From: a virus
Virus record (IMG/VR): IMGVR_UViG_3300009285_000018
Span: 1-45,887 of that record
Reading direction: 5' to 3' (one strand)
Length of the DNA stretch: 45,887 nucleotides
Part shown: one piece after another, positions 5,551 through 45,887 of the stretch
Layout of the letters: each line of letters starts with the position of its first letter
Position numbering within the stretch: the first letter of the stretch is position 1
Notes under the pieces: model-generated
Told to the model about the DNA's origin: nothing
Databases searched by the model: none
What the model saw: the letters and a program-made list of their open reading frames with translations, nothing else
Made by a program: the position numbers and the translations under genes

Positions 5551-6165
5551 ATGTATATAAACATAAAAGATGAAACTCTTTGCATCACTTTCCCGTATGC
5601 AAAGTCGGTAATTGACGCGCTCCGTACTATTCCGGGTCGCGTTTTTAATCCAAAATTAAAACGATGGGAAGTGCCGGTTGAGAACGGCATTGAATGTTTG
5701 CGCGTTTTGGAGCCGCTTGGTTTCAATGTGCATTTGGACGTAAAAAGACGGGTGGAAGCGCTAAAAAAAGAAATTGAGGAATCTGAAGAACTTAAAATAA
5801 ATCCATCTGTTCCATATTCCGGATCTTTGCCGCTTTACGATTTCCAAAAAATCGGAGCGGCTTTTTTGAAAGCGCGTTCAGCCTCTCTTCTTGCCGACGT
5901 TCCCGGTCTCGGGAAAACAATTCAAACGATTGCGGCGCTGGAAGAAATCTCGGGAATAAAATTGGTGGTATGTCCGGCTTCTTTAAAATTTAGTTGGCAA
6001 AATGAAATAAACAAGTGGAAATCGAACGAAATAATTTTTGTGGTTGATGGTTCAAAAGAAGAACGCATTGAAATTTATAAAAACGCGAAAAGTTGCGGAA
6101 ATGGATACTTAATAATAAATTATGAGCTTCTTTTGCACGATTTTGACATACTTGTTGACTTTTGA
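5551..6165 (+). CDS. SNF2-family helicase, N-terminal fragment (motifs I and Ia)
   Basis: Contains LYDFQ, DVPGLGKTIQTIA and VVCPASL..W. It ends at TGA 6163..6165 just before the point where motif II is expected. Confidence 0.85.
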   Translation: MYINIKDETLCITFPYAKSVIDALRTIPGRVFNPKLKRWEVPVENGIECLRVLEPLGFNVHLDVKRRVEALKKEIEESEELKINPSVPYSGSLPLYDFQKIGAAFLKARSASLLADVPGLGKTIQTIAALEEISGIKLVVCPASLKFSWQNEINKWKSNEIIFVVDGSKEERIEIYKNAKSCGNGYLIINYELLLHDFDILVDF

Positions 6166-6598
6166 TATGCTTGTAGTGTGGCAAAAGCTGGAAGAAAAAA
6201 AGGATCAATCCCGTGGAATAAGGGTTTAAAAGGAATATACCATATTTGGCCCAATGGTCGTCCTCCTATTAGCGAAGAAACACGCAAGAAAATTGGACTC
6301 TCGGGAATTGGGCGAACTCCATGGAATAAGGGGAAGCCTTATTTTGAGATCCGTGGAGACAGAAATCCTAACTGGAAAGGCGGAATTACTGGAGAGGACC
6401 AAACCTTGAGAAGTAGAATTGAATTCAAGAATTGGAGCAAAACAGTATTTAAAATAAACGATAAGAAGTGTGCGAAATGCGGATCTAAAAAGGATTTAGT
6501 TGCGCATCATAAAAAAAGTTTCAAGAAATATGTTTCTTTACGCTATGATTCTTCAAATGGAATTATCGTATGTCGTAAATGTCACATAAAAATTCATC
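6166..6598 (+). mobile_element. Homing-endonuclease insertion that splits the SNF2 helicase gene
   Basis: About 430 nt separate helicase motif Ia/Ib from motif II and consist almost entirely of the HNH ORF. The two flanking helicase reading frames differ by +1. Confidence 0.7.
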
Positions 6599-6642
6599 AT
6601 GTTTGCGGCCATAATAAGCGACGAAAGTACAAGGATTTCTAA
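6178..6642 (+). CDS. HNH homing endonuclease with NUMOD3-like repeats
   Basis: Repeats GSIPWNKG and GRTPWNKG, plus SEETRKKIGLSGIG. HNH core is CAKCGS...LVAHH...NGIIVCRKCHIKIHH. GTG start. It is in frame with the upstream fragment across a single TGA. Confidence 0.85.
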   Translation: MAKAGRKKGSIPWNKGLKGIYHIWPNGRPPISEETRKKIGLSGIGRTPWNKGKPYFEIRGDRNPNWKGGITGEDQTLRSRIEFKNWSKTVFKINDKKCAKCGSKKDLVAHHKKSFKKYVSLRYDSSNGIIVCRKCHIKIHHVCGHNKRRKYKDF

Positions 6643-7627
6643 TCCGTCGGCCAAAACCACTAAATTTTTAAAACAACTTCAAACCAAGAAAAAAATTGCC
6701 CTTACCGGCACGCCAATTTCCAATTCTCCAAATGATCTCTATTCCATCATCGACTGGCTGTCCCCGCGCTTTTTAGGAACTTACTACCAATTTTTGTCGC
6801 GTTATTGTATTACCGACGCGCGCTATCCATCCATGATTCTTGGCTACCAAAATCTTAGTGAACTCAAATGGCGCGTGTCGCGTTTTATTCTCCGACGATC
6901 CAAAGAAGAAGTCTTTACCGACTTTCCGTCAAAAACCATCAGTAATATTGTGTTTGATTTGAGCGAAGAGGAACGCGAACTATACGATAACATCCGGAAT
7001 TTGATTTGGGAGGAACTTGAGGCGCTCACCATAACCAAACAAAGTTTGGCGACTATTCCGGTGAAAATGCTTCGACTTAAACAAGCCACCGATCACCCGG
7101 CGCTGATTTCGGACTTGAAAAAATCCTCCAAAATGGAGACGTTGCAGGAACTTTTGAAAGGCATAGTGGAAAGCGGAGAGAAAGTGATTATTTTTTCCCA
7201 ATTCGCAGAAATGGCCAAAAAGATTTTTGACGAAACTTCGGCCTCGCTCATAATTCATGGCGAAGTTCCATCGGAGAAGCGCCAGCAAATTGTCAACCTT
7301 TTTAATACCGAACCATTTTATCGTGTATTGATAATGACCGAAGCTGGCGCGTACGGCTTAAATTTGCAGGCCGCATCTTACGTAATTCATTACGATTCTC
7401 CATGGTCCGTTGCTAAACTTATGCAACGTGAGGACCGTGCGCACCGTATAGGCCAAACTAAGTCCGTCACTGTTTATAACTTAATTGCGCGAAAAACCAT
7501 TGACGAATACGTGCTGAAAAAATTGCACAAAAAACAAAAACTCGCGGTGGAGCTTTTGCAAGATGTCGAGCGCTTGGAAGCGCAGGGAATTGATGAGGAA
7601 GATATCAAATCAATCCTCCGGATTTAG
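6599..7627 (+). CDS. SNF2-family helicase, C-terminal fragment (motifs II-VI)
   Basis: Contains IISDEST (motif II), LTGTPISNSPNDLYS (motif III) and QREDRAHRIGQTKSVTVYNL (motif VI). This frame opens at 6590, directly after a TAA. Confidence 0.85.
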   Translation: MFAAIISDESTRISNPSAKTTKFLKQLQTKKKIALTGTPISNSPNDLYSIIDWLSPRFLGTYYQFLSRYCITDARYPSMILGYQNLSELKWRVSRFILRRSKEEVFTDFPSKTISNIVFDLSEEERELYDNIRNLIWEELEALTITKQSLATIPVKMLRLKQATDHPALISDLKKSSKMETLQELLKGIVESGEKVIIFSQFAEMAKKIFDETSASLIIHGEVPSEKRQQIVNLFNTEPFYRVLIMTEAGAYGLNLQAASYVIHYDSPWSVAKLMQREDRAHRIGQTKSVTVYNLIARKTIDEYVLKKLHKKQKLAVELLQDVERLEAQGIDEEDIKSILRI

Positions 7628-8910
7628 GCATTTTCAAAAAGTGTTTTAGCATCGATCTCTTCTTCTTTTTCCGCCATCGCAATCTCCTCGTCACTCCATA
7701 TCGGAGAGATTTTCTCGTATTTTCGGATGATCTCCACATACTCCGGATACATGGTCCACCGATCCGCGGCGCCCCCCTCTTCCGTATCTTTGCCTTTCAT
7801 TCGTCTGCATACGCGAAGCATTGAAAGATTTTCAAGATACATACGAATCGGAGTGTTGGGATAACCAAGCGCGTTTGCGATTTCAGTGGTAGATTGCTCG
7901 TCTCTTTTTGCCATCTCAAGAATTACCATCTTATTTGTCTGCGGAATGGAATCCAAAGTAGTTTTGTAAATCATATTGATACTGATTTCGTCCAATTTTC
8001 CGAATTGTAGGGCCAGCGAAAATGCTATTGATTCCAATGCTTGTGCAAGACCGGTTGGAATTTCTGCAGACGGCACGAACATCACTTCGTTACGGTTGCC
8101 GGCGTCCCGGATGACTCCGGAACGGGACTTACAGGCAAAGTCGGAAAGAACAATGAGCTCTTCTGTTTGTGCTTCATTTAGTCCCGGAATTTTTTTCTCC
8201 CAATCGATTCCTTGGATGTAAGCATATACCGCGTCTTTTAACTCGCGCTGCATTACATCCTGTATGGCATTATTTTTCAAGCTCCGGCGCGTGACTTCTT
8301 TTCGGTCCGGCATAATAATTCGGTAATTCAAAAATCGCTCGCCAAGCGTGGTGTGCATTTGTTGCGCTAAATCCACAACTTGCGTAGATGCGGCTATCAG
8401 CCCCACTCTTCCTTCCCAATCCCGAATTTGGCCGTTGCCAAATACTTTTTTGAATGATCCGTCCCAAATTTCCCGAAGTTGTGCCATGATTTCGCGCCGC
8501 GCGTCCTGCTGCATGGAAAGAACGCTGGTCCAATCTTTAAAAAGCATAATTTTATTTCCTAAAAGTGGAAGAAGTGAGGCGTCCCGGCCTCCGGGCATGC
8601 CAGAAAGAAACGATTGCGGAGTGAGAAGTGACATCGGATAAATGTCTCCGAGATCGTACAGCGAATTCAAAAATTCCGTTTTGCCTCCGCGTGAAGGCCC
8701 GATGATTATGCACCACGCCGGTTTCCGGCCTTTTAATCTGATAGTTCCGTATGCGCCCATTAGGAATCGGAGGATGTAGGGATCCACGATAAGAAGCCAT
8801 TTATTAAAAACAGCCTCGAGTTCTGTAAATGAAATCGGCTTCAGCGAGTCAAGGTGGATGCGGAGTTTGGCCGCCGCCTCTTGTTTTGCGAAATCTTCTT
8901 CGGATCGCAT
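7624..8910 (-). CDS. P-loop NTPase, putative replicative helicase or primase-associated ATPase with a C-terminal wHTH
   Basis: Walker A-like GPSRGGKTE and Walker B-like IMLFKDW. It lies directly downstream of the CHC2 zinc-finger gene. Confidence 0.5.
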   Translation of the reverse strand: MRSEEDFAKQEAAAKLRIHLDSLKPISFTELEAVFNKWLLIVDPYILRFLMGAYGTIRLKGRKPAWCIIIGPSRGGKTEFLNSLYDLGDIYPMSLLTPQSFLSGMPGGRDASLLPLLGNKIMLFKDWTSVLSMQQDARREIMAQLREIWDGSFKKVFGNGQIRDWEGRVGLIAASTQVVDLAQQMHTTLGERFLNYRIIMPDRKEVTRRSLKNNAIQDVMQRELKDAVYAYIQGIDWEKKIPGLNEAQTEELIVLSDFACKSRSGVIRDAGNRNEVMFVPSAEIPTGLAQALESIAFSLALQFGKLDEISINMIYKTTLDSIPQTNKMVILEMAKRDEQSTTEIANALGYPNTPIRMYLENLSMLRVCRRMKGKDTEEGGAADRWTMYPEYVEIIRKYEKISPIWSDEEIAMAEKEEEIDAKTLFENA

Positions 8911-9613: not shown

Positions 9614-9665
9614 GGTCCAATTATACTATGGTAAAATGATGGTATCAAATCAGTATTGTGGATAA
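9614..9665 (-). promoter_or_regulatory. DnaA-box plus TAGTATAAT promoter for the primase/ATPase operon
   Basis: Read on the minus strand: TTATCCACA (9665..9657), N28, TAGTATAAT (9628..9620), N6, ATG (9613). Confidence 0.6.
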
Positions 9666-11641: not shown

Positions 11642-12706
11642 ATGAAAATTCTAATTACGGGAATTTGTGGATTCATTCCACATCATCTTACGGAACATAT
11701 TATAAAGAATACTGATTGGGAAATAATTGGATTAGATAATTTAACATATGCCTCGAGGGGCTTTGATAGATTGAGAGATATTAAGGTTTACAACGACAAA
11801 AGGGTAAAAATTTTTACCCACGATATTACTCGTCCAATTTCTGAAGAGTTATTAAGAGAAATAGGAGAAGTTGATTATATCTTACATTTAGCAGCAAATA
11901 CCCACGTGGATAACTCCATAATTGACCCTGAGCCCTTTGTAATGACAAATGTGGTTGGAACTATGCATATGCTCGATTTCGCGCGTAAGCAGCTAAATTT
12001 GAAGCATTTTCTCTACTTCTCCACGGACGAGATATTCGGGCCGGCTCCAGTGGAAGTAGCGTATAAAGAGTGGGATCGGTATAACTCCGGCAATCCTTAT
12101 TCTGCGTCAAAGGCTGGCGGAGAGGAGCTTTGTTTGGCATATGCCAATACTTATCATATCCCGATACTCATAACTCACACTATGAATGTTTTTGGAGAAC
12201 GCCAACATCCGGAAAAATTCATACCAAAAGTAATTCGTGCGGCTCTGGACAGCCACATTATTCCAATTCATTCCGATAAAACCAAAACCGTTGCTGGATC
12301 CCGTATGTGGATTCACGCGCGGAATGTGGCAGCTGCGATTCTGCATCTTTTGGAATATACCTCGCACGATTCCAGTATTGTAGTCCCGCGTCCGACCTAT
12401 TGGCGTCCGGAATATGCGGATAAGTTCAATATTGTTGGAGAACGGGAAGTGGATAATCTTGCAATGGCGAAATTGATACATAAGATAGTGATGGAAACGG
12501 TCAAAGAACAACGAACTTTTAAATACGAAATGGTTGATTTCCATTCGAGCCGCCCCGGGCACGATTTGCGTTATGCGCTTGATGGTTCAAAAATGAAAGC
12601 CATGGGGTGGTCGTTACCCATGGGATTTGAAGATTCGTTAAGAAAGACGGTTGAGTGGACCGTCCAAAATCCAAAATGGCTAAATATAATTTCTCAATCC
12701 AAGTAG
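11642..12706 (+). CDS. rmlB: NAD-dependent sugar epimerase/dehydratase, dTDP-glucose 4,6-dehydratase-like
   Basis: Contains ILITGICGFIP (GxxGxxG), STDEIFG and YSASKAGGE (YxxxK). Length is 354 aa. Confidence 0.75.
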   Translation: MKILITGICGFIPHHLTEHIIKNTDWEIIGLDNLTYASRGFDRLRDIKVYNDKRVKIFTHDITRPISEELLREIGEVDYILHLAANTHVDNSIIDPEPFVMTNVVGTMHMLDFARKQLNLKHFLYFSTDEIFGPAPVEVAYKEWDRYNSGNPYSASKAGGEELCLAYANTYHIPILITHTMNVFGERQHPEKFIPKVIRAALDSHIIPIHSDKTKTVAGSRMWIHARNVAAAILHLLEYTSHDSSIVVPRPTYWRPEYADKFNIVGEREVDNLAMAKLIHKIVMETVKEQRTFKYEMVDFHSSRPGHDLRYALDGSKMKAMGWSLPMGFEDSLRKTVEWTVQNPKWLNIISQSK

Positions 12707-40515: not shown

Positions 40516-40569
40516 AGTCAATTATATTATACTACCAAATCCGCTTCTCTGGTATATCGATTATCCTCA
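40516..40569 (-). promoter_or_regulatory. TAGTATAAT promoter of the portal gene, with an 8/9 DnaA-box-like site in inverted orientation
   Basis: Read on the minus strand: TAGTATAAT (40534..40526), N10, ATG (40515). The terL TAG stop is part of the element. TTATCCTCA lies on the plus strand at 40561..40569, 26 nt upstream of the promoter element. Confidence 0.45.
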
Positions 40570-43354
40570 CAGGCACTTTTTGCCCGCTTTTCTGCGCAAA
40601 TATATCCTCCACCCGATTGGCAAATGGATTAAAGTCAAATCTCGTAACCGTGTTTTTAAACATTTTCCGCTCCAAGTACCATATCCCCATTCCCAAACAC
40701 ATCACGTCATCCTGTTCCAATTTTTTGTCCGTTATGCCTTTTTCCGGATTGTACTGGTAATTTCCCATCTGCTCTTCCAGCTGCGTAATGTGATACCCGC
40801 GAATTGCGCCGAATTCCGGATTCAGTTCAATAACTTTATTTTCCGGATCGAGTTCGGTTTTGCGATTGCGCGTCATGGCCATCAATAAACAAAAAAGCAT
40901 ATCCGCCTTGTCGCCGCCGGCATTAAAATCCAAAACATCCGTCATCCCCATTTCTACCAGCATCTTTTTTATAATCACCCCGCCCATGGCGCCCGAATCG
41001 TGCAGAAATTTCGCGCCGTTCCATTCCCGCTGCAGCATACGCGCCCGAGCCAGCACCGCGAATGGACTGCCGCCCCGAATTTCTTCCCGAAAAGAAATCC
41101 GCACTTTCCGCAAATGCTTCGGAACTTTTTCATTCAAACATTCCGTATAATCCAAAACGTAAAAAACAGTCGGATCTCCGGTGTCGGCAAATCCCCAGTC
41201 GCCAATCACTAAATACTTATGTTCATACTTCGGCATTTCCGGCACATCCGCATCCCATATGCGCTCAATCAAAATTGAATCAAACATTTTTTTGCCGGTA
41301 GTCACGAACTCGCCGAACATCACCTGCCGGTACTTGGCCGGATCGGTGGATCGAATCTGCGCCGCAATCCGGTCACGTTCGACTGGACCCAAAAATATAT
41401 TGTCCGAAATTTTTCCCAAAAGCGTCCACCATCCCTCCTCGCCCTTCAAGCCCAATTTCGAAATATGAAAAAAATATTGGTGCGACGGCTTATCCACTTC
41501 CGGAGTGGAAACCAAATCCAGCGGCCCGCCAAAGTCAATTAGCCGCGACATGATCTTTGCCGGCAATTCCTGCTTCAAGTGCAGCGAGTTGCCGCTCCAC
41601 GCCACTCTTCCGTTCCTACGGACCATTAGTGTATGATTTTTTTCCAAAGCAAGACACGCAATGTTCCCCGAGTAAAAAACCTTTTTTACGGAAGCATGAG
41701 CAGTATTTTTAGGATGATGGTTGATACGCGGAAACTGTCCACGTTTTCTGAACTGAATCCGATAAAAATCCAGTGAACCTTTTATTTTTCTCCCCTTAAT
41801 AAAACCTCCCGATCCTCCTCTGTCCGCTTTCAAAGACGGGACGAGGCCAATACGCAAACAAAGCTCCATCACATCATCGGCAAGGCCCTTGCTTGTCGTG
41901 CCGTATATACCGCAACCCTTTCCACTTTTCTTATATGAACCGTCACCGAGAATCAGTCCGTCAAAAAGAAGCCGGAGCAAACGCGGAGAAAGGTTTAGCG
42001 TCTCTCGCGGAATTCTTTTGTTTTCAGCAAGACATGGAACAAAATACTTAATAAATTCCGCGAGTTGTTTGTCAAAAACATGATATCCGACTTTGTTGTT
42101 TAAACTCCAAGAAAACCCCATCGAATCAAGCAGTTTTGGAATCACATAAAATGCCTTTCCTTTTTCAGTTTGTGAAATTGTGATTCGACCTTTCCACACC
42201 GAACCTTCCGAAATGTAAAGCCCGAGAAAAAGCAGAAAATCTTCAACTACAACTTTGCGTTCTCCACGAACATATAGTCCACTTCCGGACATCTTATTTC
42301 TATACGCGGGAATCATAAAATAAGCCGATTCACGACCGGTTGCCGTAAAAGACTGGTTCAACTTAAACTGTTTTCCGATAAGGTTCCCCGCTTCCTCAAA
42401 AGCAAACGATCCATATTGATTTGCCCCTTTGCTTTTTGCAACCAGCATCTTATGGTTCGGGGTAACAAGAAGGTCCGTAAACTGTTGTTTCTCTCCTCCG
42501 AACTGGATCATGTCGCCTTCGTACGGCTCGTTAATAACACTCTTCACTTTAACTTTTTCCACCAATCCGGTTTCAATATTTATTGACGGAACCAATTCGC
42601 CGATAGCAACATTATAAAATTTCTTCCAACCAAGATCAGTAAGAACTTCCGTGTCGTCGCTATAACATTGCGCGCACTCATCATATGAAATATACAAATA
42701 CGGAGTCCCGGCAAGCGACGAGGCCTGATCTTCTCCGGTGGGAACCGCCTTATACGAAGTCCCGTTCTTAAAAAAAATCTGCCGTTTTTGAACACTGTCC
42801 GAAACATAGAAATCCGGGATGATACATTTATTATTTATCGTGTTCCCGGCAATCGTAGAGATGAGTTTCGACGCCAAAATATCCACAATATAATCAAATC
42901 CGGCTTGCGCCTGATTAGAGTGCGGACTTAAATTCAGCGTGCCGCAGCGGATTGCGGCCCATTCTTTGCCTTTGGCGCGGACTCCAACCTTATAATAATT
43001 GTACCAAACATGTTTTACCGAAGTGACAAGCGTTTTACCCCAACGGTTTGACGGCACCAGAATATTTTTTGAAAAATCCGGATTACGCGCCAACAGCTCA
43101 TCAAACTCTCCGCGCGATTTCCATGTTCCAAGCAAAGCCCCCAGATCGTACGCTTGCTCGGATTGAGTGCGCGTTGTCATCCAAAGCCATAATTTCTGCC
43201 CGTCGTGCAATTTCACACCCAAAAGATTTTCCGCAAAAAATACCGGATCCTTTTTTCCGGCACGCACCTTGTCTAAAAACTCGCGTTGCTCCGGCGTCAA
43301 ATCCGCAAGCAATGCTTCACGGCTCATTTTTTCTATATTAGTATGATTCCCCAT
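40532..43354 (-). CDS. terL: terminase large subunit interrupted by an intein
   Basis: Contains a Walker A-like RWGKT, Walker B LYISYDE, the STP motif after the intein, and nuclease-domain acidic motifs (VIGDWGFADTGDPTVFYVLD). The protein is 940 aa in total, or 580 aa without the intein. Confidence 0.85.
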   Translation of the reverse strand: MGNHTNIEKMSREALLADLTPEQREFLDKVRAGKKDPVFFAENLLGVKLHDGQKLWLWMTTRTQSEQAYDLGALLGTWKSRGEFDELLARNPDFSKNILVPSNRWGKTLVTSVKHVWYNYYKVGVRAKGKEWAAIRCGTLNLSPHSNQAQAGFDYIVDILASKLISTIAGNTINNKCIIPDFYVSDSVQKRQIFFKNGTSYKAVPTGEDQASSLAGTPYLYISYDECAQCYSDDTEVLTDLGWKKFYNVAIGELVPSINIETGLVEKVKVKSVINEPYEGDMIQFGGEKQQFTDLLVTPNHKMLVAKSKGANQYGSFAFEEAGNLIGKQFKLNQSFTATGRESAYFMIPAYRNKMSGSGLYVRGERKVVVEDFLLFLGLYISEGSVWKGRITISQTEKGKAFYVIPKLLDSMGFSWSLNNKVGYHVFDKQLAEFIKYFVPCLAENKRIPRETLNLSPRLLRLLFDGLILGDGSYKKSGKGCGIYGTTSKGLADDVMELCLRIGLVPSLKADRGGSGGFIKGRKIKGSLDFYRIQFRKRGQFPRINHHPKNTAHASVKKVFYSGNIACLALEKNHTLMVRRNGRVAWSGNSLHLKQELPAKIMSRLIDFGGPLDLVSTPEVDKPSHQYFFHISKLGLKGEEGWWTLLGKISDNIFLGPVERDRIAAQIRSTDPAKYRQVMFGEFVTTGKKMFDSILIERIWDADVPEMPKYEHKYLVIGDWGFADTGDPTVFYVLDYTECLNEKVPKHLRKVRISFREEIRGGSPFAVLARARMLQREWNGAKFLHDSGAMGGVIIKKMLVEMGMTDVLDFNAGGDKADMLFCLLMAMTRNRKTELDPENKVIELNPEFGAIRGYHITQLEEQMGNYQYNPEKGITDKKLEQDDVMCLGMGIWYLERKMFKNTVTRFDFNPFANRVEDIFAQKSGQKVPVRIIDIPEKRIW
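41588..42667 (-). mobile_element. 360-aa intein with a LAGLIDADG homing-endonuclease domain inside terL
   Basis: It starts with CYSDDTEVLT (residue 230), straight after the Walker B segment DECAQ. Block B is LVTPNHKMLV. The two LAGLIDADG-type motifs are LFLGLYISEGSV and LLFDGLILGDGSY. It ends with VAWSGN, followed by Ser as the +1 residue. Confidence 0.8.
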
Positions 43355-45660: not shown

Positions 45661-45887
45661 ATGAAAATCCAACTCAAAGAAGCAACCGCAGACCTCACGA
45701 AACTTCTCAAAAGAGCAAAAATCCGCCTTGATGATTGGTACACCCAAACCGACAAAATCAATGAAGCCATACAGGAAGTAGGACTTGTGATCTGTCTTGA
45801 TTGGCACTGTACGGAAATGGAAGGCCTTATAGAAGTTTCCTACTATTCCAACAAAATCTATCGCCGCATAATCATTGATTCGGATTC
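45661..45887 (+). CDS. N-terminal part of the wrap-around hypothetical ORF (continues as 78..183)
   Basis: ATG at 45661 (MKIQLKEATADLTKLLKRAKIRLDDWYTQTDKINEAIQEVGLVICLDWHCTEMEGL...). The frame is open to the end of the window and in phase with 1..183. Confidence 0.55.
   Translation, partial: MKIQLKEATADLTKLLKRAKIRLDDWYTQTDKINEAIQEVGLVICLDWHCTEMEGLIEVSYYSNKIYRRIIIDSD
45811..45887. repeat. Second copy of the 77-bp terminal direct repeat
   Basis: Exact match to 1..77 on direct reading. Confidence 0.95.

Follow-up and report, generated by a model that had tools for sequence, protein, structure and literature searches.

What becomes of a motor ATPase gene when an endonuclease gene lies inside its catalytic domain? 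This question is raised by a SNF2 ATPase locus in the IMG/VR virus record IMGVR_UViG_3300009285_000018, which we analysed from position 1 to position 45,887 (45,887 nucleotides (nt); hereafter the window). Three open reading frames (ORFs) follow one another on the plus strand. The first, at 5551..6165, encodes a SNF2 N-fragment of 204 amino acids (aa), in which a HARP-like domain at the N-terminus precedes motifs I (GLGKT) to Ib, and it ends with a TGA at 6163-6165. The second, at 6178..6642, starts with GTG and encodes a 154-aa HNH homing endonuclease, identified by Pfam HNH and by the PHROG HNH endonuclease families. The third, at 6599..7627 in the +1 frame, encodes a SNF2 C-fragment of 342 aa, which opens with MFAAIISDEST (motif II) and also holds motifs III-VI and the C-terminal lobe. 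Comparison of the junctions placed a 44-nt overlap between the 3′ end of the HNH gene and the start of the C-fragment at 6599..6642 (+). A first-pass annotation had described this locus as a SNF2 gene split just before motif II by an HNH/NUMOD3 ORF, and its ORF coordinates, the TGA at 6163..6165, the resumption of motif II at 6599 in the +1 frame, the 154-aa length and the 44-nt overlap were all borne out by the ORF coordinates, by Pfam matches and by alignment to unsplit homologues. The annotation had left three outcomes for the helicase, namely a compact intron, two separate polypeptides around a free-standing endonuclease, or a pseudogene. Our analysis makes it very probable that a free-standing HNH homing endonuclease has created a two-piece SNF2 enzyme in an uncultured phage of about 45 kb.

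A SNF2 gene interrupted just before motif II

The SNF2 identity of the fragments was supported by matches to PF00176 and PF00271 across both pieces, with which the PHROGs concurred. The N-fragment aligned to positions 12-120 of the Pfam SNF2-rel_dom profile (E 2.7e-11), its HARP match being weak, and the C-fragment aligned to positions 128-289 of the same profile (E 2e-25) and to Helicase_C (E 3.5e-25). The best PDB match of the SNF2 family profile was 1z63, the Sulfolobus SNF2/Rad54 core (E 2e-92). The exact N-fragment protein was found on 17 contigs and the exact C-fragment protein on 15 (from JGI, Logan and ENA), while an independent ENA contig (L002) matched window positions 6428..7747 at 99.8% without gaps. 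The three-ORF arrangement is therefore genuine, and the assembly error that the first-pass annotation had considered for the stop and frameshift does not account for it.

The N-fragment protein ends ...HDFDILVDF and is then terminated by TGA. This codon is an ordinary stop here, as it terminates 15 of the 43 long ORFs of the window, and under code 11 there are open frames as long as 1288 aa, which rules out TGA recoding. In the frame of the C-fragment, a TAA lies three codons 5′ of the ATG at 6599, so that this ATG is the sole plausible C-fragment start. The HNH ORF had also been noted to be in frame with the N-fragment across the TGA; this is true in the window (6178-5551 = 627) but is a matter of chance, given that the spacer from the N-fragment stop to the HNH start is 12, 14 or 30 nt in other alleles. 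A read-through fusion of the N-fragment and the HNH protein was ruled out because most alleles have a spacer whose length is not divisible by 3. A +1 frameshift at TTT-TGA was discarded as well, the resulting tails being short and unconserved among alleles.

When the fused protein was used as the query, thousands of relatives were retrieved, and 119 of the best 120 were single proteins of 530-580 aa. Many unsplit homologues sit on contigs of 43-46 kb, which presumably represent whole genomes of the uncultured family to which this phage belongs, and the syntenic locus L001 carries an unsplit protein (P0001) that is 77% identical to the window protein. Among cultured phages, no relative exceeded 37% identity for SNF2 or 38% for HNH. 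The window N-fragment aligns to residues 1-198 of P0001. Around the break, unsplit homologues read ...HDFDLIKDH-EW-xAIVCDEAT (also given as ...NYELLLHDFDLIKDH-EW-xAIVCDEATRISNP...), and the unsplit P0254-type site reads ...HDFDEMPKEWDVIVADEATRV...; the window N-fragment ends ...NYELLLHDFDILVDF, and the C-fragment opens MF-AAIISDESTRISNP. When the fragment ends were compared with the 119 unsplit homologues, zero residues were lost and zero were added. The alignment to uninterrupted homologues that the first-pass annotation had proposed thus yielded the exact insertion point. An AlphaFold2 model of unsplit P0001 (predicted local distance difference test score 88.6) places the break where loop 193-198 gives way to strand 199-206, the strand of motif II. 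This loop is extended by a 6-residue insertion in some homologues, indicating that it tolerates change. Across the homologues compared, the unsplit SNF2 gene is the norm, and there is no sign of an ancestral two-gene state.

The arrangement of N-fragment, HNH gene and C-fragment recurs at the same site in L003/L004, L005, L006-9/L176, L010, L011, L093, L174 and, on the 3′ side only, L012, which we counted as split alleles in at least nine diverged phages. All HNH homologues that share 57-73% identity, P0122-P0128 among them, occupy the same SNF2 position. An endonuclease gene is present in all split alleles for which the contig covers the internal region, which argues against an ancestral two-gene SNF2 without an endonuclease, a possibility that had been raised at first pass. 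Both junctions are invariant, with xxx-TTT-TGA-TAT on the 5′ side and T-ATG-TTY on the 3′ side, and in most alleles the HNH stop and the C-fragment start overlap in the 8-nt ATGTTTAA. In L175 (L175:4001-4661), the N-fragment ends F-TAA and is followed at the contig end by a different ORF start (ATGCCAGTCGGA...); another element may occupy the same site there.

The endonuclease, its probable mobility and selection on the split gene

The HNH protein carries PWNKG/NUMOD3-like repeats at its N-terminus and a CxxC...HH...N...CxxC...H nuclease at its C-terminus. It scored 26.8 bits against Pfam HNH PF01844, above the cut-off of 21.4, and 18.5 bits against NUMOD3, short of the cut-off of 20.4. A search of PDB sequences with the HNH profile gave no significant match to any solved HNH structure. 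The catalytic or zinc residues C98, C101, H110, H111, N127, C132, C135 and H140 were invariant in 8 homologues. The window copy starts with GTG, where all other alleles have ATG, and it has lost a TAA (6604..6606), which gives it 13 extra codons and the 44-nt overlap with the C-fragment. These changes may represent early decay or down-tuning of this copy. In L012 (L012:108-653), the HNH protein has 181 aa and an additional Cys-rich stretch at its C-terminus, and the C-fragment starts MPF.

More distant HNH relatives, at most 51% identical, were collected with an HNH profile search from 160 loci of IMG/VR and JGI metagenomes, and none of them adjoins SNF2, indicating that the HNH clade is site-specific. 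Within the same genome pairs, the HNH proteins are 61-73% identical, compared with 41-62% for the SNF2 parts. In a neighbour-joining tree of the SNF2 C-terminal part, the split alleles are scattered among unsplit ones. The nearest relatives of the window SNF2, P0254 and P0001, are both unsplit, and the 90%-identity cluster of the window C-fragment includes the unsplit 541-aa protein P0254. The window protein is 97% identical to P0254 over N-fragment aa 1-130, about 50% identical over fused aa 131-217, and about 95% identical from C-fragment aa 14 onward. The low-identity tract spans about 87 aa around the insertion (N-fragment aa 131-204 and C-fragment aa 1-13) and, with the HNH gene, corresponds to a probable co-conversion tract at 5941..6640 (+). 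This tract is closest to the split alleles L093 (48/74, 65%) and L010 (41/70, 59%), unlike P0254 or P0001, and the window HNH protein is closest to that of L010 (73% identity; 65% for L093). It is probably the footprint expected of homing from a diverged donor.

If the insertion had simply killed the SNF2 gene, the fragments would be decaying, or one of them alone would be functional, and the phage would manage without an intact SNF2. A break inside the RecA-like domain would fit such an inactivation, as would the small drift of the window HNH gene in its start and stop codons. Against this, both fragments retain full-length frames and all ATPase motifs in at least nine alleles, despite saturated synonymous sites. 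Between alleles, the proportion of nonsynonymous differences (pN) in the HNH gene is 0.19-0.34 and that of synonymous differences (pS) 0.53-1.1, with pN of 0.25-0.44 and pS of 0.7-1.0 (synonymous sites saturated) for the SNF2 fragments. Comparison of the window with L001 gave a ratio of nonsynonymous to synonymous substitution rates (dN/dS) of about 0.10 for the C-fragment and about 0.18 for the N-fragment. All three ORFs are under purifying selection, and the pseudogene outcome of the first-pass annotation is contradicted by three intact ORFs maintained in this way. Moreover, the HNH lineages are deeply diverged and all members of the clade lie in split SNF2 genes, which indicates that the fragments have long stayed intact while split. 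The fragments are also 95-97% identical to unsplit P0254 outside the co-converted tract, and the stop and start codons are exactly conserved. We therefore regard an inactivated gene as unlikely.

Junction signals and the fate of the insert

A compact self-splicing intron would instead restore a single-chain SNF2 protein. Such an element would be a group I-like intron of 439 nt at 6163..6601 with its core inside the HNH ORF, and its removal would join GAC TTT to TTT GCG. The spliced product, ...ILVDF-FAAIISDE, would equal the P0001-class homologues in length. In all alleles, a U stands at the would-be 5′ exon end and a G at the would-be intron end (TTT/TGA ... ATG/TTY), and phage introns usually have a stop codon directly behind their 5′ splice site. 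The U...G boundary is weak intron evidence, because the Phe, stop and start codons explain it equally, and the whole ATG is invariant at the 3′ junction, beyond the G alone, which fits a start codon better. No Rfam family matched anywhere in the window at gathering thresholds, and the covariance-model check for a group I intron (RF00028) that had been suggested at first pass gave no match in 5900..6900 even at E<=10. The first-pass view that the insert is too short for a separate group I core agrees with the sequence left outside the HNH ORF, which amounts to no more than 12-30 nt on the 5′ side and to nothing on the 3′ side.

RNAalifold analysis of 7 diverged alleles found no conserved helices with covariation; the consensus reached -17 kcal/mol over 608 columns, and the covariation term was unfavourable (+0.84). 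The minimum free energy (MFE) of the insert was no better than that of shuffled sequence (z-score -0.84). Synonymous-codon identity was flat (0.29-0.57) across the HNH ORF and rose only in the overlap with the C-fragment. In the alignment of alleles, no internal guide sequence was seen to covary with the exon ends, which are variable. A group I intron was accordingly rejected on the negative Rfam, RNAalifold, MFE and synonymous-site results, and the compact intron considered in the first-pass annotation is very improbable.

A single chain could also arise through repair by a split intein, as in a 'fractured gene', or through a translational bypass like that of T4 gene 60. Phages are known to have fractured genes in which the two split-intein halves flank an endonuclease gene (PMC2677866). 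At the window locus, neither fragment end has a Hint-domain half or extra residues (no additional halves of about 100 aa or 35 aa), the C-fragment start lacks a Cys, Ser or Thr nucleophile, and a stop and a frame change are present. Intein halves are excluded because the fragment ends match the unsplit homologues residue for residue. The insert resembles a bypass in that matched Phe codons flank it like take-off and landing codons, with a stop straight after the first and a weak hairpin over this stop. However, the gap to be crossed is 436-480 nt and holds a conserved, selected and translated ORF, compared with 50 nt in gene 60, and landing needs no conserved ATG. Both mechanisms are thus extremely unlikely. 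We assign just as slight a chance to the insert being removed or skipped in some other way to give a single-chain SNF2, either by an unrecognised RNA excision without a group I-like core or by a hop from TTT-TGA to ATG-TTY of about 10 times the gene 60 length.

The 5′ junction carries a candidate expression signal for the endonuclease. The promoter scan predicted a sigma-70-like promoter of the HNH gene at 6143..6171 (+), consisting of TTGACA, a 17-nt spacing and TATGCT with an upstream TG. The -35 element TTGACA lies in the last exon codons (F-D-I), 17 nt from the -10 element, and the extended -10 element is the invariant TTTTGATAT, which holds the last Phe codon and the TGA stop too. The promoter ends 6 nt before the HNH start codon in the window (6-8 nt across alleles) and is conserved in 8 alleles, with TTGACT as the -35 element in L005. 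An HNH mRNA initiated at this predicted promoter would be leaderless or have a very short leader. Only one other such promoter was found 6 nt before a gene start in the window, that of the primase operon at 9648..9620 (-), which reads TTGATA-17-TATAAT and precedes an ATG. TGnTATAAT-like boxes also stand 6-8 nt ahead of several other gene starts. No gene in the window is preceded by a Shine-Dalgarno sequence, the upstream regions being A/T-rich, so that the absence of such a sequence ahead of ATG 6599 is no argument against the C-fragment being translated independently. Leaderless mRNAs may be common in this phage.

The same junction contains an imperfect 19-nt tandem direct repeat on the plus strand, with copies at 6141-6159 (TTTTGACATACTTGTTGAC) and 6160-6178 (TTTTGATATGCTTGTAGTG). 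The first copy comprises the last exon codons and the second the stop and spacer. The copies are identical at 14 of 19 positions in the window and at up to 17 of 21 in L008, and the repeat is present in all alleles with a 5′ junction. Because the reading frame enters the second copy shifted by one base, a TTT-TGA stop arises there, and the repeat also sets the spacing between the -35 and -10 elements. A test for concerted evolution of the repeat was not significant, similarity within alleles being no higher than between alleles (permutation p = 0.11).

A weak hairpin at 6159..6187 (+), marginal by RNAalifold and folding energy, covers the N-fragment stop and the HNH start codons and is the only helix that RNAalifold keeps at the junction. 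It folds with -7.3 kcal/mol in the window, and the values in other alleles range from -1.2 to -11.3 kcal/mol. The 5′ arm of the hairpin is the -10 element; therefore, read-through transcripts could mask the HNH start, and promoter-initiated ones could not. Masking of the start by a hairpin is a design known for I-TevI and mobE (PMC2988022) and for fractured genes (PMC2677866).

A probable two-piece SNF2 among known split genes

The outcome in which two polypeptides are made around a free-standing endonuclease, as the first-pass annotation had allowed, is favoured because the fragments complement each other exactly, their stop and ATG are conserved, split alleles are distributed patchily, and a co-conversion tract surrounds the insertion. 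In this two-piece arrangement, the cassette sits in a surface loop just before the β-strand of motif II (DExx) and ends the upstream part, the HARP-like domain with motifs I-Ib, with its TGA. The endonuclease would be expressed from the conserved sigma-70-like promoter, which is partly made of the last exon codons, and the 3′ end of the cassette supplies the ATG of the downstream part (motifs II-VI), overlapping the HNH stop in most alleles. Each SNF2 polypeptide contributes part of the central sheet of RecA lobe 1, and the two would therefore associate non-covalently to form a single ATPase. The unsplit allele would be cut or nicked by the endonuclease close to the conserved sequence that codes for motif II, repair would copy the cassette and flanking exon sequence from the donor, and the element would spread among related phages by homing. 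The activity and target of the endonuclease, the use of the promoter and translational coupling are predictions from the sequence. Reassembly of the fragments into an active enzyme is suggested indirectly by the conserved stop and ATG, by purifying selection and by the position of the break between loop and strand in the structural model.

Several points weigh against this arrangement. Since the break lies inside RecA lobe 1, reconstitution would need tight co-folding, and no example of this was found for any SNF2 enzyme. The co-conversion tract is defined at the protein level. The neighbour-joining tree is rough, and many independent losses could also yield the patchy pattern, although they would leave the co-conversion tract unexplained. 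The z-scores of the junction hairpin are mostly between -0.4 and -2.5, with one of +0.76, and are mostly non-significant. Finally, a GTG start is expected to be poor on a leaderless mRNA, and the window HNH gene may be weakly expressed or starting to decay.

Genes split by endonuclease genes whose pieces reassemble include nrdA of phage Aeh1, interrupted by mobE, the T4 topoisomerase gene, interrupted by mobA, and gene 43, interrupted by a seg gene (PMC2988022). As in Aeh1 nrdA (Friedrich et al. 2007, reviewed in PMC2988022), a free-standing HNH gene lies in a critical conserved part of an essential DNA-metabolism gene, the products of two cistrons must reassemble, related phages have an uninterrupted gene, and a promoter just upstream of the endonuclease gene falls within a hairpin over the translation start. 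The window locus further shares with the mobE/nrdA type an intact nuclease motif, the absence of an intron or intein, a patchy distribution with unsplit relatives, and co-conversion, here at the protein level. It differs in its host gene, a SNF2 ATPase and not a ribonucleotide reductase (RNR), with the break in a RecA-like lobe, and in its phage lineage, which is uncultured and unrelated to T4-like phages. The endonuclease is small (147-154 aa), with a NUMOD3-like N-terminus and an HNH C-terminus, and its predicted promoter is sigma-70-like with an apparently leaderless start and is not a T4-type late promoter.

In the T4 topoisomerase large-subunit gene (genes 39/60), interrupted by mobA, and in gene 43 of Aeromonas phage 25, interrupted by seg43, an endonuclease gene likewise lies between the halves of an enzyme, which co-assemble in those systems (PMC2988022). 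The window has no 50-nt bypass element, and both the enzyme and the endonuclease family differ. In fractured genes, the endonuclease gene is preceded by a hairpin or promoter, and its 3′ end runs into the downstream start (Dassa et al. 2009, PMC2677866); the window locus has these features and the three-cistron layout found there in phages and metagenomes. The window fragments, unlike fractured genes, carry no split-intein halves and thus undergo no trans-splicing ligation. I-HmuI, in the group I intron of the SPO1 DNA polymerase gene, is likewise a small phage HNH homing enzyme with a conserved replication gene as its target and exon co-conversion, but the window ORF has no surrounding ribozyme and a different domain order. 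We found no earlier report of a SNF2 gene split by a homing endonuclease in the searchable literature, and the SNF2 ATPase appears to be a new host-gene target for a known type of gene-splitting homing endonuclease.

Other homing-type genes occur in these genomes. The 44.9-kb related phage L003 has a second, more distant HNH relative (36% identity) at L003:7939-8187, just downstream of its split SNF2 gene, and an HNH_3 gene further on toward the contig end; genomes of this phage family seem to collect several homing-endonuclease genes. In the window, 40532..43354 (-) encodes a 940-aa large terminase (PHROG terminase match at aa 600-904) with a candidate intein of about 360 aa carrying LAGLIDADG_3 at 41588..42667 (-). 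The candidate intein begins CYSDDTEVLT after the Walker B-like ...YISYDECAQ and ends ...VAWSGN/S, and it would be a second homing element in the same genome. Elsewhere in the window, 11642..12706 (+) encodes a member of the GDP-mannose 4,6-dehydratase/NAD-dependent epimerase family (Pfam E 4e-45), which may be an auxiliary gene for the host surface or for sugar modification.

With this locus, SNF2 ATPases join the short list of phage enzymes (RNR, topoisomerase and DNA polymerase) broken by a homing endonuclease. The comparative record is unusually clear, with at least nine diverged split alleles, a near-identical sister protein with an empty site, and a recognisable co-conversion tract. Annotators should label both SNF2 ORFs as pieces of a single enzyme and not as truncated genes or pseudogenes. 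If the halves do reassemble, the locus would provide a naturally selected split site in RecA lobe 1 of a SNF2 motor, useful for split-protein engineering and for the study of folding. The cassette would also show how a selfish gene, by bringing a stop, a promoter and a start codon, makes its insertion in an essential gene tolerable.

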